Shown: piece after piece, positions 2,284-24,000 of the stretch | How positions within the stretch are numbered: position 1 is the first letter of the stretch | Layout: each line of letters starts with the position of its first letter | NCBI GenBank assembly: GCA_017537265.1 | Contig: JAFYLE010000009.1 | Coordinates: 7,421 to 31,420, forward strand | Length of the DNA stretch: 24,000 nucleotides | Direction: 5' to 3' | DNA from: Clostridia bacterium | GTDB taxonomy: Bacteria > Bacillota > Clostridia > Oscillospirales > SIG627 | Notes under the pieces: generated by a model | Database searches by the model: none | Seen by the model: only the letters and a program-made list of their open reading frames with translations | Told to the model about the DNA's origin: nothing | Program-made: the position numbers and the translations under genes

Positions 2284-3417
2284 ATGAAACAAACCGTCTC
2301 TTTTTACGCATGTGATTCTTATGAGGACCGCGCCGCTCTCAAGCGCGCGGTCCTTTCTGTCATTTCCGACTGCGGCGGCTTCGACGCCCTGTTTGACCGC
2401 GGACGCCGCGTGGTCGTCAAGCCCAATCTGGTGATGAAAAAGTCGCCGGAGGGAGCCGCTACCACCCATCCCGCGCTGATGGACGTGCTTTTGGAGATCT
2501 TGCTTGAATACACCCGCGACATCCGCGTGGTCGAGTGTCCGGGCGGTCCCGGCACGCCCGCACTCGTGGAGGCGATCTATCGCACCACGGGTATTCGCGA
2601 GGTCTGCGACAGACGCGGCGTGGAGATCGTCGTTTCCCCCGAGGCGCGCACGGTCACGGTGGAAGGCGCCAAGGTCGCCTCTGCGCTTTCGCTTGCGGGG
2701 GAAATGGTGGACGCGGACGTGTTCATCAACCTCGGCAAACTCAAGAGCCACTCGCTCACCACGTTTACGGGCTGTGCCAAGAACCTTTACGGTGCCATCG
2801 TCGGGCTGACCAAGGTAGAGTACCACGCCCGTTTTGCACAGCTTTCCGACTTCGCCAACCTTATTTGCGACATCAACCGTGCACTCGTGCCCACGCTCAA
2901 TCTGCTGGATGCTGTCGTCGGCATGGAAGGCAACGGCCCCACCGGCGGCACGGCGCGTAAGATCGGCGGCATCGTCGGCGGCAACAACGCTTTTGCCGTG
3001 GACGCCATCGGCGCTCGCCTCATCGGACTTCGGGAAGAAGAGGCCCCCATTCTGTCCGCCGCCCGTGCTCTCGGCCTTTACACACCGGTGGAAGAGTGCC
3101 TCGGCGACGATTATGCTCCCTTTGTGCAGAGCGATTTTCTCTTTGCGGACGCACAGCGCTTTTCCATCTTGCGCGAGATGCCGAATCTCAAGTTTTTGCG
3201 CCGCTTTTTGGAACCGCGCCCCGTCATCTCCTCCCGCTGTGTCGGTTGCGGGGAATGTGTGCGCCTCTGCCCGAAGAGCGTCATTGAACTTCGCACGGTG
3301 AAGGGCAAAAAACGCGCGTACATTCACAAAAACAAGTGTATCCGTTGCTATTGCTGTCAGGAACTTTGTCCTGCCAAGGCCGTGGATACCAAGTCCAGAA
3401 AGATCCTGAAGATATGA
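2284..3417 (+). CDS. DUF362 domain protein with a C-terminal 2x[4Fe-4S] ferredoxin-type domain
   Basis: It has a DUF362-like core (RRVVVKPNLV..., LKSHSLTTFTGCAKNLYG, MEGNGP) and two cluster motifs, CVGCGECVRLCP and CIRCYCCQELCP. Its stop overlaps the ispE start (ATGA at 3414-3417). Confidence 0.8.
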   Translation: MKQTVSFYACDSYEDRAALKRAVLSVISDCGGFDALFDRGRRVVVKPNLVMKKSPEGAATTHPALMDVLLEILLEYTRDIRVVECPGGPGTPALVEAIYRTTGIREVCDRRGVEIVVSPEARTVTVEGAKVASALSLAGEMVDADVFINLGKLKSHSLTTFTGCAKNLYGAIVGLTKVEYHARFAQLSDFANLICDINRALVPTLNLLDAVVGMEGNGPTGGTARKIGGIVGGNNAFAVDAIGARLIGLREEEAPILSAARALGLYTPVEECLGDDYAPFVQSDFLFADAQRFSILREMPNLKFLRRFLEPRPVISSRCVGCGECVRLCPKSVIELRTVKGKKRAYIHKNKCIRCYCCQELCPAKAVDTKSRKILKI

Positions 3418-4271
3418 GTGGGAGACGACTCACCCTTTGGGCGGCCGCAAAACTCAACCTCACCCTCGGCGTGGGAGAGCGCCGCGCGGACGGTTATCAC
3501 GAGATCCGCTCCGTCATGCAGAAGATCAGCCTGTACGATACGCTCTCTTTTGCCAAGGCGGATGAGATTTGCTTTACCTCGGATCTCAAGTACCTTCCGA
3601 ATGACGAGCGCAACCTCTGTGTCAAGGCCGCACGTCTGTATTTCGAGGCTGCGGGAATTGACGGCGGCGTGGATATCCGCGTGCGCAAGGCCATTCCCGT
3701 CGGTGCGGGTCTCGGCGGAGGAAGTGCGGATGCCGCGTGCACTTTGCGCGCCCTTTGTGCACTGTACCGACCGTTGGATCGGGAGACGCTTCACGCCCTT
3801 GCCCTTTCTCTCGGCGCGGACGTTGCGTTTTGCCTGTCGGAGGACACCACGTGCCTTTGTGAGGGCGTGGGGGAGGTGCTGACTCCCATTGTCCGCGGCG
3901 GGAGTGCGCCCATTTACCTCGTGCTTGTTAAAAACGACCGCAAACTTTCCACCGCCTCGGTGTACGGTGCGTTTGACAGTATGCCCGCTCGCCCCATTCC
4001 CTCGGATGAAAAGGTGCTTGCCGCATTGCAAAGCGGAGACGCAAAACTGCTCTCCGAGAATTTGTTTAATATGTTGGAGCAGCCGGTCTTCGCGCAGAAG
4101 CCCGCGCTTTCCGATCTGCTCGCGGAATTTGCCGCCCTCGGTGCACTCGGTGCGCGCATGAGCGGCGCAGGGCCCACCGTTTACGGCGTGTTTGACAGTC
4201 AGGAGTCCGCACTCAAAGCCGCGGCTCATTTTGAGTCTGCGCCGTTTTGCCGCATCGCAACGCTTTTGTAA
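3414..4271 (+). CDS. ispE: 4-diphosphocytidyl-2-C-methyl-D-erythritol kinase (MEP pathway)
   Basis: It carries the GHMP-kinase motif PVGAGLGGGSADAA and the typical IspE N-terminus AKLNLTLGV. I chose the start at ATG 3414 (MSGRRLTLWAAAKLNL). The ORF-track start at 3336 would overlap the upstream gene by 80 nt. Confidence 0.9.
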   Translation: MSGRRLTLWAAAKLNLTLGVGERRADGYHEIRSVMQKISLYDTLSFAKADEICFTSDLKYLPNDERNLCVKAARLYFEAAGIDGGVDIRVRKAIPVGAGLGGGSADAACTLRALCALYRPLDRETLHALALSLGADVAFCLSEDTTCLCEGVGEVLTPIVRGGSAPIYLVLVKNDRKLSTASVYGAFDSMPARPIPSDEKVLAALQSGDAKLLSENLFNMLEQPVFAQKPALSDLLAEFAALGALGARMSGAGPTVYGVFDSQESALKAAAHFESAPFCRIATLL

Positions 4272-4273
4272 TT

Positions 4274-4303
4274 GCATATTTTTTCCAAAGCAGCCGAATA
4301 CTC
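4274..4303 (+). promoter_or_regulatory. Candidate forespore-type (sigma-F/G-like) promoter for spoIIR
   Basis: GCATA at 4274-4278 matches the -35 GywTA. After a 15-nt spacer, ccGAATACTc at 4294-4303 matches the RAnAnT part of the -10 but lacks the GG. The match is to consensus sequences recalled from B. subtilis and is weak. Confidence 0.25.
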
Positions 4304-4335
4304 CCATTGCCAAACTTGGCAATGGGAGGTTTTTT
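4301..4335 (+). terminator. Rho-independent terminator after ispE; its 3' arm contains the spoIIR Shine-Dalgarno
   Basis: The stem CTCCCATTGCC (4301-4311) pairs with GGCAATGGGAG (4318-4328) around the loop AAACTT, followed by GTTTTTT (4329-4335). Confidence 0.85.
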
Positions 4336-4965
4336 ATGTTTGCGATCTGTTTGCCCGCGTACAGAAGACAGATGCTTCTGCGCGCGCTCGCACTTTTGTT
4401 TGCCCTTGTGCTCTGCGCCTTTGTTCTTCTTCCGCTCAAGGCACAGGCGGCACTTTTTGATTCGGTTTTGCGTTTTCACGTCGTTGCGAATTCCGACAGC
4501 GCAAAAGATCAGGAGATCAAACTGCTCGTGCGCGACAAGCTTTTGGAATGGACGGGGGAAGACCTCGCTCTTTGCCGCCAGAGCGCGGAGGCCGAGGTTT
4601 ATCTTGCCGCAAGAAAAAGTGAGCTTTTAAGCCGCGTGAGGGTGTATCTTGCATCTTTGGGCGTCTCTTACGGTGCCGAGGTATTCCTCGGTGCGGAGGA
4701 ACACGCGGCGAAAGTCTATGGTGACCTCACGCTGCCCGCGGGCGAGTACCGTACGTTTCGCGTGGTGCTCGGAGAGGGTTGCGGGCAGAATTTTTTCTGC
4801 GTGCTCTTTCCGCCGATCTGCCAAAACAGCGCGAAGGGAAGCGCTTCCGAGACTTTTTTGCACTACGGCGTCAAGGGAGAGAGCGTGGGGCGGATCAAGA
4901 CGCGCCAAGGGGTGGAGGTGCGCTTCTTCCTGTGGGAAAAATTGAGGTCGATTTTTCAAATGTAA
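4336..4965 (+). CDS. spoIIR: Stage II sporulation protein R (forespore signal for pro-sigma-E processing)
   Basis: It has an N-terminal signal/TM segment and the SpoIIR hallmarks LRFHVVANSDSAKDQEIKLLVRD, PAGEY, FFCVLFPPIC and VRFFLWE. I chose ATG 4336, which follows GGGAGG (4324-4329). The ORF-track start at 4192 would overlap ispE. Confidence 0.9.
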   Translation: MFAICLPAYRRQMLLRALALLFALVLCAFVLLPLKAQAALFDSVLRFHVVANSDSAKDQEIKLLVRDKLLEWTGEDLALCRQSAEAEVYLAARKSELLSRVRVYLASLGVSYGAEVFLGAEEHAAKVYGDLTLPAGEYRTFRVVLGEGCGQNFFCVLFPPICQNSAKGSASETFLHYGVKGESVGRIKTRQGVEVRFFLWEKLRSIFQM

Positions 4966-5911: not shown

Positions 5912-7429
5912 ATGAAACAGCTTAAGAGACTTGTGCTTCTTTTGCTCGTGGCAGCGTTCTGCGTTCTGCCGCTTGCTTCCTGCATCCCCGGTCGCGGCAA
6001 CGCGTTCGACGGTGGCGATCCCACTCCGATCGACCCCAACGCCAAGCCCGGTACTTACGACTATGCAAAGAGTCTTGTGCCTTCCGTCAATTACGAAGGC
6101 CGTGACTTCCGTATCCTCGTGTGTAAGTCCGTCAGCGAGTTCGACGCCAACAACGGTGACCTTGCCCGCAACGTCGTGGCAAAGGAATCCCTCGGTATTC
6201 CGATCAACGACGCCGTCCTGACCCGTAACATGGACCTGCAGACTCAGCTCGGCATCACCATCCGCGCCACGGAGAAGCCCTTCCGCAAAGTTGCGGAGGA
6301 ACTGCGCAACTCCATTCTCACGCAGGACGACCGTTACGACATCTGCTTCACCCGTTTGGACGACCTCACCCCGCTCGCCAGCGAAGGTCTTCTCGTCAAC
6401 CTTTTTGAAATGGACCTTGACCTGTCTCAGCCTTGGTGGGATCAGAACTCCATCAAGGAACTGACCATTCAGGACGAATTGTACTTTGCCGTGAGTGACG
6501 GTGACATCGTCGACAAACAGACTACCATGGCCTGCATGTTCAACAAGAAGGTCATGGACGAGCAGCAGATCGATCCCAAGAGCGTTTACGCCATGGTCGA
6601 CGAAGGCACCTGGACCATCGACGCCATGATGGATATGATCAAGAACATCAGCCCCGACAGCAGCGGCGACGGTATCAAGAATGAAGAAGATACTTGGGGC
6701 ATTTTGACCGAGTATGACTCCGCGACCTGTTTCTATTACGCGTTCGGCGGTTGCGTCACCGACAAGAACGGCTCTGACGAACCGCAGCTTCGCCTCGGCG
6801 ACAGTGACATGCGTGAAGCGGTCGATAAAGCCATTCTGACCCTGCGCGACAATGCCAACGTCTTCAAGGTCGAGCAGATGGGCGGCAACTGGCTCGCCGC
6901 CAGTGACATGTTTATCAACAACCAGGCCATGTTCCGTATCACCAACCTCACCACCACCGAGCGTTGGCGTAACATGGAGGCAGACTTCGGTATCCTGCCC
7001 ATGCCCAAGCTCAACGAAGAGCAGAAGAATTACGTCCACCTCTGCAAGAACGGTGCAACCGGCGTTTGCGTGCCCAACACCAATACCGACCTGGACTTCA
7101 CCGCCATCTGCCTTGAGGCGTTTGTGTCCTTCTCCCGCTATACCCTCCGCGAGGGCTACTTTGAATCCACCATGCAGGGCATGGTCTCCCGTGATGAAGA
7201 GACTGCCCGCATGCTCAACCTCATCTTCGACACCCGTGCCTTTGACCTCGGTTATATCTTTGACTTCGGTTGCAGCGAGGCCGGTATGATGGACGGCACC
7301 GGTTACCTTCTCAAGAAGATCGCCGCCGATCTTTCCACGCAGTTTGGTTCTTCGTGGGACTCCATTCGCGACAAAGCACAGGCCCAGATCGACGACATGC
7401 TCGATACGCTGGAGAACTCCCGCATCTAA
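5912..7429 (+). CDS. Extracellular solute-binding lipoprotein (ABC-type, family 1-like, ~500 aa class)
   Basis: It has a signal peptide with the lipobox LPLASC (Cys24). Its size and composition are typical of large carbohydrate-binding SBPs of Firmicutes. GGAGG lies upstream. No permease or ATPase genes are adjacent. Confidence 0.7.
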   Translation: MKQLKRLVLLLLVAAFCVLPLASCIPGRGNAFDGGDPTPIDPNAKPGTYDYAKSLVPSVNYEGRDFRILVCKSVSEFDANNGDLARNVVAKESLGIPINDAVLTRNMDLQTQLGITIRATEKPFRKVAEELRNSILTQDDRYDICFTRLDDLTPLASEGLLVNLFEMDLDLSQPWWDQNSIKELTIQDELYFAVSDGDIVDKQTTMACMFNKKVMDEQQIDPKSVYAMVDEGTWTIDAMMDMIKNISPDSSGDGIKNEEDTWGILTEYDSATCFYYAFGGCVTDKNGSDEPQLRLGDSDMREAVDKAILTLRDNANVFKVEQMGGNWLAASDMFINNQAMFRITNLTTTERWRNMEADFGILPMPKLNEEQKNYVHLCKNGATGVCVPNTNTDLDFTAICLEAFVSFSRYTLREGYFESTMQGMVSRDEETARMLNLIFDTRAFDLGYIFDFGCSEAGMMDGTGYLLKKIAADLSTQFGSSWDSIRDKAQAQIDDMLDTLENSRI

Positions 7430-7578
7430 CAGAGCTTGAGGTTACGGTTTTATCTTAAAAACTGTTGCGATCATCTACCTTTTGACCAAGGTCTGCACCT
7501 GCGGCTCCAAGGCGTGTAAAGCCGAGGAAGCAGAGGGCAAGGCCGTCAAGACCGACATTGACTGACAACTGCATAAAA

Positions 7579-7792
7579 CGCTGAGAACGAGGGGCAAACA
7601 CCTCAAGTCTGTGACTCCAGAGAGGCCGGAGGATGGAAACGGCTGTCACGGCGGTGGGCGCATTTCACTCGGGAGCGGCGCGGGGGATAATCCCGCGACG
7701 GCACCGTCCGTAAACCGGTTTTTAAGTGATAAATAAGGGTGGTACCGCGACCTTGTTCGCCCCTGTGAAAACAGGGGCGAATTTTATTTTTT
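7579..7792 (+). promoter_or_regulatory. T-box riboswitch leader, Phe (UUC) specifier, controlling pheST
   Basis: The stem I base is CGC-UGAGAA-CGAG (7579-7591) pairing with CUCG-GGA-GCG (7668-7677), which is K-turn-like. An AG-bulge CCAGAGAG is at 7617-7624. The specifier UUC (7664-7666) is followed by A7667 immediately 5' of the closing helix. The T-box motif GGGTGGTACCGCG is at 7737-7749, with UGGU able to pair with an ACCA 3' end. A terminator hairpin follows. Confidence 0.9.
7756..7792 (+). terminator. T-box leader terminator (alternative to the antiterminator)
   Basis: TTCGCCCCTGT (7756-7766) pairs with ACAGGGGCGAA (7771-7781) around a GAAA loop, followed by TTTTATTTTTT (7782-7792). Confidence 0.9.
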
Positions 7793-14165: not shown

Positions 14166-14178
14166 AAGAGAGTCCCTC

Positions 14179-14207
14179 TTGCAAAAAATTAATAATTATG
14201 CTATAAT
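14179..14207 (+). promoter_or_regulatory. Near-consensus sigma-A promoter with extended -10, driving the large ncRNA
   Basis: TTGCAA (14179-14184), a 17-nt spacer, then TGcTATAAT (14199-14207). It begins 14 nt after the xseB stop. Confidence 0.8.
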
Positions 14208-14213
14208 CCACTT

Positions 14214-14852
14214 TGATGGTGCAGTATCCTAGTAAGGACAGTCCTTTTTGAAAACGGGCCTAAAAATCCGTCAAAGGGCACATCGATGAAGCATTTTGTG
14301 CCTGCTTCGTACGCCCAGTATGGGGTGGGTGCTGAATGAGTGGACTTGTGGGCAATCGCAATGGCATGCGGCAACTGTCCCACTCGTTCTTGGAGGCCTT
14401 ATGCCGTGGGGGCTCTTTTGTTCCTACGGGTAAGGGGTAAACCTGTCACGCGGTACGATTTTGATGCTGTGGGCAGTGTAGCCTGCCTTGAGTGGGTGTG
14501 GCGAATCACGGAACACACCGGGGCTTCCGGCCGGAAGACCCTTAGGTGATTGCCGGGTGAAACCATGGCTGCAAAAGAGGCTGAGAAAGGCTCTGTTCTT
14601 TGGAGGAAATCTCCTAGGCTGTTTTGTTTACAAAGGCATAAAAGGGATTGCAGTGCGACCTCATCGGCAATCGAGTCCCGATACACGGCGACGGTATCGG
14701 CTTCGCTTTAAAGGGGAACCGCTTTTTCGGCAACGGGAAGTAGCGAATGGGGAAACGCCAACTCGACCTTAAGCCGCAACATTTACTTTTTATGCTGCCA
14801 TCAACCAAGTCATCAATATGCCTTTTCGTGTCGTTGCGGGAAGGCATATATT
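14214..14852 (+). ncRNA. ole: Large structured non-coding RNA, OLE-class (ornate, large, extremophilic RNA); ends approximate
   Basis: The interval has no RBS-supported ORF, has its own promoter, and contains many local helices (for example 14277-14302, 14404-14429, 14495-14519, 14521-14541, 14678-14700, 14816-14849). Its length of ~640 nt and the synteny xseA-xseB-[RNA]-small membrane protein-dxs-tlyA-nadK-argR-recN match published OLE loci. I did not verify conserved OLE nucleotides. Confidence 0.75.
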
Positions 14853-14879
14853 ATACAAACGGACTTTTTCGGAGGAATT

Positions 14880-15503
14880 TTGGACACATCTCCCATCCCC
14901 CCCGCGCGACGTGAGCGCGAGGAAAAAAACAAAAAGAATAAGCGCCGCCGCAGCCACGTCAACTGGAAGTGGGTCTTCACCGTCTTTGGGCTGAGTCTTC
15001 TCATTTCCATGGTGCTCGCCGTGCTCTCCAGCACGCTGGAGACGATGAATATCTTCGTCGGTTTCATCGTTTTGCTTCTGGTCATCGCCCTCGGTGTTGT
15101 GTTTGACTACATCGGTCTTGCGGTGGCAAGTGCAGACGCGGGCAATTTCCATTCCATGGCCGCCCACGGCAGTCCTTACGGCGCCAAAGGCGTGTGGCTC
15201 ATCAATAACGCGGAGAAGGTCTCCTCGTTTTGCAACGACGTCATCGGCGACATTTCCGGTATTCTTTCGGGTGCCATCGGCGCCACACTTTCCATTTCGC
15301 TCTTTGCGGCGGATACTCCGTGGGGCTTTTGGGGCGATCTGCTTCTCTCCGGCGCCATTTCCGCCATTACCGTCGGCGGCAAGGCCATTTTCAAGGGACT
15401 TGCACTTGCCAACAGTCAGAAGGTCGTGTATTTCCTCTGTGGCGTCCTCTGTCTGTTCTCCCGCAAGAAACAGCCGCAAAAAGCCAAGAAAAAACAAAAA
15501 TAA
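14880..15503 (+). CDS. oapA: OLE-associated membrane protein A-like (4-5 hydrophobic segments, basic termini)
   Basis: A TTG start follows GGAGG (14871-14875). The 207-aa protein has an N-terminal ARREREEKNKKNKRRRSH and a C-terminal SRKKQPQKAKKKQK. Hydrophobic segments lie at about aa 30-50, 57-82, 121-142, 148-168 and 181-193, and there is an NDVIGD acidic pair. It sits immediately 3' of the large RNA and 5' of dxs, as reported for oapA. Confidence 0.7.
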   Translation: MDTSPIPPARREREEKNKKNKRRRSHVNWKWVFTVFGLSLLISMVLAVLSSTLETMNIFVGFIVLLLVIALGVVFDYIGLAVASADAGNFHSMAAHGSPYGAKGVWLINNAEKVSSFCNDVIGDISGILSGAIGATLSISLFAADTPWGFWGDLLLSGAISAITVGGKAIFKGLALANSQKVVYFLCGVLCLFSRKKQPQKAKKKQK

Positions 15504-15518
15504 AGGCATTTTGTCAGC

Positions 15519-17363
15519 ATGAAAACATATTCACAGGAAGAGCTCAAGGCGCTCACCACGCCGGAGGCAAAGACGCTTTGCGAAGACATACGTCGGTACT
15601 TGGTAGACCAAGTGATGAGTACCGGCGGTCATCTTGCGTCCAACCTCGGCATCGTGGAGGTGAGCCTTGGGCTTTTGCGCGTTTTCAACCTGCCTGACGA
15701 TCACGTTCTTTACGATACCGGGCACCAGAGCTACGTTCACAAGATCTTGACCGGCCGCGCGCAGGCGTTTTCCGCTCTTCGCACGTACGGCGGCATTTCG
15801 GGTTTTCCCAAGCGCAGTGAGAGCGAGTTCGACTCGTTCGGTGCAGGGCATTCGGGCACGGCGGTTTCGGCCGCCTTGGGTTTTTCGCGCGCGCGCGCGT
15901 TGCAAAACCCCAAGGATCACAGCCAGCACACCGTTGCTGTCTTGGGTGACGGCGCCCTGACTTGCGGCATGGTGTACGAGGCACTCAACAACATCCGTCC
16001 CTCGGACAATCTGATCATCATCTTAAACGACAACGATATGTCCATCTCCAAGAGCGTGGGCAGGCTTTCGCGTTACCTCTCCAAGGTGCGTAAGAGCAAG
16101 CGTTATCTCTCCATGAAGGTCAAGAGCCATCACGTGTTGGATCGCATTCCGCTCGTCGGCGCAGGCATTGAGCGCGGTCTTTCCCGTATGAAGCGCTCGC
16201 TCAAGTCCATCGTTTACCGCTCCAATCTGTTTGAACAACTCGGCATTTATTACCTGGGTCCCGCAAACGGCAATAATTTGGAAGAGGTCGAGCGTCTGCT
16301 GATCGAGGCGCGCCGTCATCGCGGGCCTGTTTTGGTGCATTTCATCACCAAGAAAGGCTGCGGTTACGCTCCTGCAGAAGAGGATCCCGGCCGTTATCAT
16401 TCCGTCTCCGCTTCCGCAGGGGAGTGCGTGACGTTTTCCGAGAAATTCGGCGAGACGCTGTGCGAACTTGCGTCCGCGGACGACAAGGTTGTCGCCATCA
16501 CCGCCGCCATGGAATCCGGCACGGGGCTTTCTGCTTTCCACAGCCGTTTTCCCAAGCGGTTTTACGACGTCGGCATTTCCGAAGAGCACGGCATGACCTT
16601 TGCCGCAGGTCTCTCCGCAGGCGGAGTCAAGCCGGTGTTTGCCGTGTACAGCACGTTCTTCCAGCGCGCGTACGACCAACTATTCCACGACCTTTCCCTG
16701 CAGAATCTCGGCGCCGTTGTGGCGCTGGATCGCGCGGGCTTTGCGGATACGGACGGACCGACGCACCACGGTCTTTTTGACGTCTCTCTCACCTTGGGGT
16801 TGCCCGGTGTGGAGGTGTATTCTCCCGCAACGCACAGGGAACTTTGCCGCACGCTCAGGGCCGCGGTGAAGGATTTTGATACCGCGACCACCGTTTTGCG
16901 CTATCCCAAGGGAAGTGAAAAGGCAGAGATCGTCCGTAGATTTCCCTGCAACGGGAACGTTGAGCGTTGGGACAGCGGTCAGAACGCACGCGTTCTGATC
17001 TTGACGTACGGCAGAATTACCGAACAAGCACTTCTTGCAGCGGACCGCCTCAAGGCCGTCGGCGTGGAATGCACGGTTGTCAAAATTTTAAAACTCAAGC
17101 CCTTTGACAGAGAGGCACTTGCTCACGTTCTTCGCGACGACGTTTTTGATCTTTGCTACTGTTTGGAAGAGGGGATCTTGTCCGGCGGCTTCTTTGAGGG
17201 GCTCGTGCTTCGCCTCTCTGCGGAAGAGCGGCTGATCGCCAATCGTTTTTCCATCCGCGCCGTGGAGGACAGTTTCGTTCCGCACGGCAAGTACGCGGAA
17301 TTGATCTCCCACACGAAATTGGACGCCACGAGCGTCTCGCGTGAGATCGCAAGTCTTCTCTGA
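15519..17363 (+). CDS. dxs: 1-deoxy-D-xylulose-5-phosphate synthase (MEP pathway)
   Basis: The 614-aa protein has the TPP-binding motif GDGALTCGMVYEALNN, GHQSYVHKILTGR, and transketolase-like pyrimidine-binding and C-terminal domains. Confidence 0.95.
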   Translation: MKTYSQEELKALTTPEAKTLCEDIRRYLVDQVMSTGGHLASNLGIVEVSLGLLRVFNLPDDHVLYDTGHQSYVHKILTGRAQAFSALRTYGGISGFPKRSESEFDSFGAGHSGTAVSAALGFSRARALQNPKDHSQHTVAVLGDGALTCGMVYEALNNIRPSDNLIIILNDNDMSISKSVGRLSRYLSKVRKSKRYLSMKVKSHHVLDRIPLVGAGIERGLSRMKRSLKSIVYRSNLFEQLGIYYLGPANGNNLEEVERLLIEARRHRGPVLVHFITKKGCGYAPAEEDPGRYHSVSASAGECVTFSEKFGETLCELASADDKVVAITAAMESGTGLSAFHSRFPKRFYDVGISEEHGMTFAAGLSAGGVKPVFAVYSTFFQRAYDQLFHDLSLQNLGAVVALDRAGFADTDGPTHHGLFDVSLTLGLPGVEVYSPATHRELCRTLRAAVKDFDTATTVLRYPKGSEKAEIVRRFPCNGNVERWDSGQNARVLILTYGRITEQALLAADRLKAVGVECTVVKILKLKPFDREALAHVLRDDVFDLCYCLEEGILSGGFFEGLVLRLSAEERLIANRFSIRAVEDSFVPHGKYAELISHTKLDATSVSREIASLL

Positions 17364-22347: not shown

Positions 22348-22382
22348 CCCCGCACTCATCTGTTTGTGCGGGGCGTTTTTTG
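22348..22382 (+). terminator. Rho-independent terminator ending the ole...recN-tyrS unit
   Basis: CCCCGCAC (22348-22355) pairs with GTGCGGGG (22366-22373), followed by a T-run at 22376-22382. Confidence 0.8.
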
Positions 22383-22389
22383 TCTTGGG

Positions 22390-22427
22390 AAAAAGAAAAA
22401 GAACCGCAGACTGCGGTTCTTTTTTTA
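22390..22427. terminator. Bidirectional terminator hairpin in the tyrS/folD convergent gap
   Basis: AAGAACCGC (22399-22407) pairs with GCGGTTCTT (22413-22421). It is flanked by an A-rich run on the 5' side and T7 on the 3' side, so it can serve folD on the minus strand. Confidence 0.75.
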
Positions 22428-22434
22428 TGCCTTT

Positions 22435-23283
22435 TTATTTTGCCGCGTTCTTTGCGGCAGTCAGAGTGTTCTGCAGGAGCATGGTGATGGTCATGGGGCC
22501 GCAACCGCCGGGTACGGGGGTGATGAAGGAGGCTTTTTCCTTTACGGCGTCAAAGTCCACGTCACCGCAGAGGCGTCCGTTCTCGTCGCGGTTCATGCCC
22601 ACGTCAATGACCACGGCGCCGTCCTTGACCATGTCTTGCGTGACGAATTTCGCACGGCCGATGGCAACGACCAGAATGTCAGCCTCCCGCGTGATGTCTG
22701 CAAGGTTTTGGGTTTTGGAGTGGCAGACGGTCACCGTCGCGTTTTTGTGCAGCAGCAACATTGCCTGCGGTTTTCCCACGATGTTGCTGCGGCCGATGAC
22801 GACAGCGTTTTTGCCCTCTACGGGGATGTCGTACTCGTCAAGCAGTGCCATCACTCCCGCGGGCGTGCAGGGGAGGAAGTCGGGATTTCCCACCATGATG
22901 CGCCCCACGGACGCGTAGCCGAAGGCATCCACGTCTTTTTTGGGGTCAATGGCTTCGATCACCGTCACTTCGTCGATGTGGCGCGGAACGGGAAGCTGCA
23001 CGAGAATGCCGTGGATCTTGTCGTCTGCGTTGAGTTTTGCAATGAGCTCCAGCAGTTCTTCCTGCGTGGTCGACTCCGGCAGGCGGTGTACTTCGGAGTA
23101 GAAGCCCACCTCAAGGCAGGCGAGTTCTTTGTTTTTTACGTAGGTTTGGCTGGCAGGGTCTTCACCCACCAGGATGACCGCGAGACCGGGCTTTTTACCG
23201 TAAGTCTCCTCGTAGGAGCGCACTTGTTCGGCAAAGCGCGCGCGCAGTTTTTTGCTGGTCAGTTTTCCGTCAAGCAGCGTCAT
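22435..23283 (-). CDS. folD: Bifunctional methylenetetrahydrofolate dehydrogenase/cyclohydrolase
   Basis: The 282-aa protein has the motifs [33 protein letters not shown] and PGGCGPMT. Confidence 0.95.
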
Positions 23284-24000
23284 GCTTCATTCTCACTTTC
23301 GTTTTCTTCTTCTTTCATTTCGGCAGGCTTTGCCTTTTTCGCACGCAAGAATCCCAGCACGAACAGACTGCCGAAGAGCAAAAAGCAAACGAGCCCCACA
23401 AGACCCGCAATGCGCATGCCCAGAACCACGGGGCTTGAGTCAATGCGGAAGAATTCCACGATCATGCGGCCCAATCCGTAGAAGGCGAGGTAGAACAGGA
23501 AGATCTCGCCGTCGTACTTCTTCGCGCGGTAGAGGAAGAAGTGGATGATCACGAGCAGAGTAAAGTTCCACAGCGATTCGTAGAAGAAGGTCGGGTGGTA
23601 GAATTCGGTGACGTTCTCGGTAATGCCGAGGCCCATGCGCCAGGGCAGATCGGTCAGGGAGCCGTAGGCTTCGCCGTTGACGAAGTTGCCCCAACGGCCG
23701 ATCATTTGACCGATGATCAGGCAGGGGGAAAAGGCGTCAAGCACGGCAAAAAGGTTGAGTTTTTTGATCTTGGTGTAGAAGATGATGACGAGGATCCCCG
23801 CGATGATGGAGCCGTAAATGGCACCGCCGCCGTTCCAGATGGCGATCCATTCAAGGAAGGGGCGACCGATGTAGTGGTCCAGTTCCATCAGCACGTGGTA
23901 GAGACGTGCACCAATGATGCCGAAGGGGATGATGAGGAGCAAAAGGTTGAGGAAGTCGTCCATGCTCACACCCTCGCGCTTGGTCGTGCGGATTCCGTAA
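23280..24000 (-). CDS. lgt: Prolipoprotein diacylglyceryl transferase; the 5' end lies beyond the window
   Basis: It has the Lgt signatures [23 protein letters not shown] and WRMG, on a multi-pass membrane protein. The frame stays open upstream of the ORF-track GTG at 23969 (..[16 protein letters not shown]..), so the gene is truncated by the window. Its stop overlaps the folD start (ATGA). Confidence 0.9.

Follow-up and report, generated by a model that had tools for sequence, protein, structure and literature searches.

The window analysed here is a 24,000-nucleotide stretch of DNA assigned to a Clostridia bacterium, and it carries a full-length OLE (ornate, large, extremophilic) RNA followed on the same strand by an open reading frame (ORF) of 207 amino acids (aa). 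We conclude that this ORF is almost certainly oapA, the gene for OLE-associated protein A (OapA), which is the subunit of the OLE ribonucleoprotein (RNP) complex that is embedded in the membrane; a sequence-only reading of the stretch had already put it forward as an OapA-like candidate for tethering the RNA that precedes it. The OLE-OapA pair is a known system, an already-known gene beside a known RNA, and there is nothing new in it. The features that carry the identification are these:

14200..14817, + strand: OLE RNA, full length (Rfam RF01071, 424.6 bits against a gathering score of 50).
14871..14875, + strand: Shine-Dalgarno sequence GGAGG, read off the sequence, with a spacer of 4 nucleotides (nt), AATT, before the TTG start codon.
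14880..15503, + strand: oapA coding sequence, 207 aa plus stop.
15237..15251, + strand: DxxxD motif (DVIGD), the OapA signature, in the third transmembrane helix (TM3); codons 120-124, with D120, G123 and D124 invariant in A1, a profile of 24 diverse relatives.
15381..15395, + strand: K168 and K172 (GGKAxxK), basic residues where TM4 is predicted to meet the cytoplasm; codons 168-172, invariant in A1 and A3.

The RNA matches the OLE model over its whole length (positions 1-616 of 616, E 9.6e-122), and oapA lies directly downstream of it, on the same strand, after a gap of 62 nt; the gene ends with a TAA stop codon at 15501-15503. By BLASTP the protein is clearly similar to a published OapA sequence, machine-read from a PDF (Kretsch et al. 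2025, Suppl. Table 4, PMC12286853), 168 aa aligning at 36% identity (E 1e-20), and alignment of the family profile to the same sequence with hhalign gives a probability of 99.9% (E 2.2e-33). Seventeen columns are invariant in A1, namely W31, F75, D76, G79, F90, M93, A94, C118, D120, G123, D124, I125, G127, S130, G131, K168 and K172. Across an alignment of 127 relatives, D120 and D124 occur at frequencies of 1.00 and 0.99, and a lysine or arginine stands at K168 and K172 at frequencies of 0.99 and 1.00. The acidic pair NDVIGD is indeed found at aa 119-124 (nt 15234-15251), where the sequence-only reading had placed it; DxxxD is given as distinctive for OapA (PMC11332333), and the D100A/D104A double substitution is the dominant-negative PM1 mutant of OapA from Halalkalibacterium halodurans (PMC9723947).

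The closest known system is OapA of Halalkalibacterium (Bacillus) halodurans (BH2780 / WP_010898928.1), together with its Clostridium orthologues. There, as here, the gene comes immediately after ole, on the same strand, and encodes a protein of about 200 aa (about 21 kDa) with four predicted transmembrane helices, no soluble domains, DxxxD in the third helix (D100/D104 there, D120/D124 here), the invariant GGKAxxK basic pair and a weak similarity to the CNNM family. In the window protein this similarity stays below the threshold of Pfam CNNM (PF01595), at 18.4 bits against a cut-off of 28.4 (E 0.0018), and spans residues 64-195 on profile positions 2-129 of 181; CNNM is matched by 17/24 family members at E<=0.01, the best at E 1.3e-8. 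The sub-threshold score agrees with the published weak homology of OapA to the CNNM/DUF21 domain of MpfA (PMC11332333). No further Pfam or NCBIfam domain was found in the window protein, and NCBIfam, which has no curated OapA model, returned just chance matches below threshold. The window differs from H. halodurans in its source, which is an uncultured Clostridia metagenome-assembled genome (MAG) known here from sequence alone and not an extremophile isolate.

The association with the RNA holds across the family. A scan of one genome per species found 592 relatives, of which the best 80 loci, rather than whole genomes, were searched for OLE, first with the window OLE by nhmmer and then with Rfam. 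Three loci (L006, L009 and L059) were uninformative, having less than 200 nt of upstream DNA; among the other 77, OLE lies upstream on the same strand at 75, that is at 74 detected by nhmmer and at one with a truncated copy (L045) added by Rfam. Measured from the OLE 3' end, the codon of the invariant tryptophan (W31) lies at a median distance of 113 nt and at 153 nt in the window, and this distance stays below 400 nt in 71 of the 74 nhmmer-positive loci, the loci with another gene between OLE and oapA being L016, L028 and L046. Within the loci examined the family is thus tied to OLE and not widespread without it, in agreement with published work in which no protein correlates more strongly with OLE than OapA does (PMC11332333). 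In H. halodurans, OapA is a cooperative binder of OLE RNA, and the RNA depends on it for localisation to the membrane (Block et al. 2011, cited by way of PMC12265935).

The ORF is a genuine gene and no chance ORF. A protein identical to it has already been deposited as a 'hypothetical protein' from a Clostridia MAG (P0001), and 4731 relatives were found at E<=1e-3 in a database clustered at 90%. A search with profile A1 among 1.84 billion proteins retrieved 1473 representatives of 50%-identity clusters, 1045 of them at E<=1e-10, and nearly all of the best 150 matches are 175-250 aa long, so the OapA family is compact and stand-alone. An antisense ORF at 14790-15509 (239 aa) was rejected, homology and synteny being all on the + strand.

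The sequence-only reading had counted four or five hydrophobic segments, and an AlphaFold2 model built on A1 (mean predicted local distance difference test score, pLDDT, 83.1; predicted template modelling score 0.70) resolves them into four long helices (29-53, 58-84, 111-143 and 149-177) and a C-terminal helix at 179-193, with additional helices at 8-22 and, in the 85-110 loop, short ones at 88-95 and 99-109. The six best matches of this model in the Protein Data Bank (PDB) by Foldseek are all CNNM membrane domains (MtCorB, 7m1t/7m1u; TpCorC, 7cfg/7cff), with probabilities of 0.80-1.00, TM-scores of 0.34-0.52 and weak E-values of 0.04-0.7. In the model the window protein thus consists of a three-helix core resembling CNNM and an additional helix at its N-terminal side, an arrangement that agrees with the published comparison of four helices in OapA to three in CorB (PMC11332333); OapA is likewise described as having four transmembrane helices in PMC12265935. 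D76, D120 and D124, all invariant and membrane-embedded, are a probable divalent-cation site in this core. The idea that DxxxD is a cation site is already in the literature (PM1 mutant, PMC9723947; PMC12265935), as is the proposal that OapA may be a transporter of divalent metals (PMC12265935).

Several points weigh against the identification of the ORF as OapA, or against parts of what follows from it. The comparison sequence, as available to us, may lack a few residues, and its species is unstated. The Foldseek E-values to CorB/CorC are weak, and sequence searches of the PDB found no relative for the single protein (one chance match at E 0.75) and nothing for the family profile; the PDB holds no OapA structure findable by sequence comparison. 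The window protein has G97 and G188 where 81% and 93% of the 127 relatives have a lysine or arginine. RNA binding, dimerisation and ion transport would be properties of the window protein by analogy with H. halodurans. Finally, at two loci from Bacilli MAGs (L031 and L033) OLE was not found in the 3 kb to either side, and both encode bona fide members of the OapA family (at 2959-3561 and 2998-3531, respectively) with CNDVIGDI and GGKAxxK. One of them, L033, has the same layout as L046, an ORF of ~415 aa, oapA, an ORF of ~305 aa and an ORF of ~525-547 aa, which by Pfam in L046 are a polysaccharide deacetylase, an N_methyl/Ig-like pilin-like protein and CotH; L028 matches this layout too, except that the fourth ORF was not seen there. 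In L028 and L046, OLE lies upstream of the gene in the deacetylase position, and because L033 has the layout in common with them, its OLE may likewise lie further upstream, outside the fetched stretch.

The features at the two ends of the protein bear on how OapA sits in the membrane and how it could meet the RNA:

14880..14963, + strand: Lys/Arg-rich N-terminal tail, predicted cytoplasmic; codons 1-28, with 10 lysines plus arginines (K+R) and 4 aspartates plus glutamates (D+E).
14964..15038, + strand: extra N-terminal transmembrane helix (TM1) with the invariant W31, not present in CNNM/CorB/CorC; codons 29-53, from the AlphaFold2 helix.
15459..15500, + strand: Lys-rich C-terminal tail, lineage-specific; codons 194-207, with 8 K+R and 0 D+E in 14 residues.

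In membrane proteins an excess of lysine and arginine marks the cytoplasmic side (the positive-inside rule), and dual-topology proteins show the opposite of a one-sided distribution. When the N-tail, the 85-110 loop and the end of TM4 plus the C-terminal side are counted as cytoplasmic, these sides being predicted, the 127 relatives have 12-40 K+R in the cytoplasmic parts (median 24; 5-13 without the tails) and 0-2 (median 0) in the two short outside loops. Under the positive-inside rule this one-sidedness predicts that OapA is inserted in one fixed orientation with both termini in the cytoplasm, which we regard as probable. Such an orientation also fits the register of CNNM domains, whose first helix (TM2 in OapA) begins on the outer side. 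It would place on the cytoplasmic face a positive cluster made of the invariant K168/K172 and of columns 22 and 24, which hold a lysine or arginine in 90-95% of relatives; the membrane side is here taken from the K+R asymmetry. The 2025 'integral membrane OLE RNA' model considers OapA facing both ways or forming antiparallel dimers (PMC12265935), and we infer from the K+R statistics that dual topology of OapA is disfavoured.

The sequence-only reading had considered it plausible that the two basic tails contact the RNA. The tails themselves are there: SRKKQPQKAKKKQK stands at aa 194-207 as described, and ARREREEKNKKNKRRRSH is present as well, at aa 9-26 and not 9-25. A basic N-tail is found in all 120 top relatives, its net charge positive in nearly all and never negative, and both tails are predicted to lie in the cytoplasm, where domain 1 of OLE is placed (PMC12265935). 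With 10 and 8 K+R residues they could serve OapA as its principal RNA-tethering elements, the more so in a lineage without basic residues at columns 97 and 188, for which tails could compensate. We nevertheless consider this unlikely, and the proposal that long basic tails are the RNA-contacting element finds no support in conservation. The N-tail varies from 6 to 101 aa (median net charge +7) and the C-tail from 0 to 37 aa (median 8, median net charge +2), neither sequence nor length is conserved, and the C-tail has at most 4 residues in 35 of 119 relatives. The published OapA sequence, in the machine-read form used here, has just MKSLGKSIN ahead of the invariant tryptophan, an N-tail of about 9 aa with 2 lysines against 28 aa with 10 K+R in the window protein, and the OLE-linked L028 and L046 have no C-tail, ending right after the last helix. 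The positive-inside rule predicts basic flanks in any membrane protein, and the low confidence of both tails in the AlphaFold2 model (block pLDDT 57-61) suggests disorder. Only the sign of the charge beside the membrane is conserved as a family feature in the sequences compared. Because the published N-tail appears to have only those 9 residues and many relatives end 2-4 residues past the last helix, the tails would at best be auxiliary, lineage-specific electrostatic contacts to the RNA.

As a separate observation on this lineage, the His-Gly at 96-97 (nt 15165-15170) and the Gly at 188 (nt 15441-15443) also occur in the closest relatives of the window protein, in place of the arginine or lysine of 81-93% of the family, and the sub-lineage that has them is the one with the longest basic C-tails. 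It is conceivable that the tails compensate for the missing basic residues at 97 and 188.

An alternative reading of TM1 is that this first hydrophobic helix is a cleaved signal peptide, leaving a three-helix, CorB-like protein without a basic N-tail. An 'N-terminal signal sequence' of C. botulinum OapA was left out of a published AlphaFold3 model (PMC12265935), CorB and CorC have three transmembrane helices with the N-terminus outside, and a weak -3/-1 site (L49-S50-S51) follows the helix. We hold cleavage to be improbable, since TM1 is conserved to an extent comparable to TM2 and TM4 (column entropy 1.56 bits, against 1.26 for TM2 and 1.35 for TM4), which is unexpected for a discarded peptide. 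One helical face is conserved together with W31, comprising F36, S39, I42 (in 119/127 relatives), S43, L46 and S50 (in 120/127). In addition, a signal peptide would need an n-region of 30 aa in this protein and of as much as about 100 aa in relatives, the hydrophobic stretch measures about 21-23 residues, and the literature otherwise gives OapA four transmembrane helices (PMC11332333, PMC12265935). With this conservation, its invariant tryptophan and its conserved face, TM1 seems to be kept as a helix and not to be a signal peptide.

A further alternative, in view of the weak resemblance to CNNM/CorB/CorC/MpfA transporters (PF01595; MtCorB, 7M1T/7M1U; TpCorC, 7CFF/7CFG), would make the ORF a Mg2+ exporter of the ordinary CNNM/CorC type, standing alone and adjoining OLE by chance. 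In the model the fold of the membrane core weakly resembles that of these transporters, in that three helices cross the membrane, short ones lie on the cytoplasmic side and another is juxtamembrane; both kinds of protein are thought to be dimeric, and both have a link to Mg2+ (OLE/OapA mutants are Mg2+-sensitive, and MpfA anticorrelates with OLE; PMC11332333). The weak Pfam match, the fact that CorB/CorC are the sole fold matches and the labels 'CorB' or 'CBS domain containing hemolysin-like' on some database relatives point the same way. However, the CNNM score lies under the Pfam cut-off, and Pfam finds neither the CBS pair nor the CorC_HlyC domain in the window protein, which stops 14 residues past its last helix. 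The protein has instead the extra N-terminal helix and DxxxD, which CNNM domains lack, and it is without the conserved CNNM proline, as published for OapA (PMC11332333), TM2-TM4 being proline-free. OLE adjoins the gene at 75/77 loci, the partner of OapA is an RNA instead of nucleotide-binding protein domains, and the family profile yields just 1473 clusters, without merging into the very large CNNM family. A stand-alone exporter beside OLE by chance is therefore very improbable.

The remaining alternative concerns the start codon. The TTG at 14880 is the earliest possible oapA start past the upstream in-frame stop, and the N-terminus that it defines had been left provisional in the sequence-only reading. 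A locus whose protein is 80% identical (L081) has the same GGAGGAATTTTGGAC at the start region, and oapA of L001 likewise begins at a TTG with a Shine-Dalgarno sequence ahead of it. In the alignment of 127 relatives, residue 2 is aspartate or glutamate in 86% (the same figure is elsewhere given for aspartate), and W31 is present in 127/127. Because conservation extends through the region that a start at M44 or M56 would delete, the TTG start after GGAGG is supported. The chance that translation begins at one of these internal methionines, so that the basic tail and TM1 are not made, is negligible: for it speak a listed start that is a TTG and its short spacer (4 nt) to GGAGG, and against it the lack of a Shine-Dalgarno sequence before M44 and M56, the conserved residue 2, columns 22/24 and W31, the same Shine-Dalgarno plus TTG kept in relatives (L081, L001), and the majority that TTG or GTG after a strong Shine-Dalgarno sequence has in the OapA family (50/71). 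At the 77 homologous loci, the in-frame start before TM1 with the best Shine-Dalgarno sequence is TTG in 34, GTG in 16, ATG in 21 and unassignable in 6, whereas the same start picker applied as a control to the other long ORFs of those loci gave ATG 116, GTG 34 and TTG 31. The enrichment of TTG at oapA (Fisher p about 2e-6) is indicative only, the loci being related by phylogeny and the control noisy. The preference for TTG/GTG suggests selection for low OapA translation from an abundant OLE transcript.

Around the pair, three further features concern transcription and gene order:

14179..14207, + strand: promoter-like TTGCAA-17 nt-TATAAT with a TG extension, before OLE; 10/12 in a consensus scan, a pattern match only.
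14816..14849, + strand: 15-pair hairpin from RNA folding, between the OLE 3' end and the oapA ribosome-binding site.
15519..17363, + strand: dxs (1-deoxy-D-xylulose-5-phosphate synthase), the usual downstream neighbour; Pfam DXP_synthase_N, 332.5 bits.

The window neighbourhood is the classical ole-oapA one, in the order pheS/pheT, nusB, a TsaD-family gene, xseA, xseB, OLE, oapA and dxs, the last beginning 16 nt past the oapA stop; after dxs follow an S4+FtsJ methyltransferase gene (tlyA-like), NAD kinase, argR, recN and tyrS. Unlike in the known system, ispA, a frequent neighbour of ole in other species, is missing from the spacer of only about 35 nt that separates xseB from OLE (14166-14199). 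OLE may have its own promoter within this short spacer, besides read-through. The RNA fold of 14805-14900 has an energy of -25.1 kcal/mol (z -2.17), and the sequence of the hairpin is largely kept in L081. A scan for terminators between OLE and oapA found no terminator-like site, and the hairpin was rejected as a terminator because no U-run follows it; it could be a stem protecting or processing the OLE 3' end. Elsewhere in the window, a T-box leader upstream of pheS/pheT (7574-7767; full model, 71.9 bits, E 9.6e-15) falls short of the gathering score of 93, a GHMP-kinase gene at 3336-4268 is possibly ispE, and two long ORFs at 5912-7429 (505 aa) and 22366-23481 (371 aa) have no Pfam match at E<=0.01. 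The window also contains spoIIR (4192-4962), which fits reports that OLE is associated with genes for sporulation.

The family identity of the protein, its synteny, its co-occurrence with OLE, its predicted fold class and its charge asymmetry are observations on this locus and its relatives, and they fit the following model. The oapA gene would probably be co-transcribed with OLE and xseA-xseB...dxs-tlyA-nadK-argR-recN, or transcribed from the promoter-like site upstream of OLE, and OapA would be translated from its weak TTG start. The protein would insert with four transmembrane helices and both termini in the cytoplasm. A CNNM/CorB/CorC-like core without CBS and CorC_HlyC would be made up of helices 2-4 together with the C-terminal helix and the pair of loop helices, helix 1 being an addition specific to OapA. 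OapA would form dimers in the membrane, whose positive inner face could dock OLE RNA, so that the RNP would assemble at the membrane; K168 and K172 would contribute to this face, as would the basic residues next to the membrane ahead of TM1 and, for this lineage, the long tails rich in basic residues. D76, D120 and D124 would be the likely divalent-cation site, and OLE and its partners may stand in for the missing CBS/CorC regulatory domains, as has been proposed (PMC12265935, PMC11332333). By analogy with H. halodurans, we would expect a ratio of about 2:1 in the binding to OLE, localisation to the membrane, and a part in cold, alcohol and Mg2+ stress; we infer the RNA-contacting residues and ion transport.

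Sequence reading alone had recognised the OLE-OapA pair correctly, and the chief value of our analysis is confirmation, through which a protein deposited as 'hypothetical' gains its correct name. K168 and K172 are the conserved basic residues to mutate first, ahead of the variable tails. If OapA is held in one fixed orientation, it would provide no outward-facing RNA-binding sites or antiparallel dimers, both mapped OapA sites on OLE would be reached from the cytoplasmic face unless another factor handles the outside, and the expanded poly-basic tails of this lineage would be extra cytoplasmic contacts to RNA or lipid. The charge asymmetry of the family thereby bears on the debated transmembrane-RNA models and may be of modest use for research on the OLE RNP.

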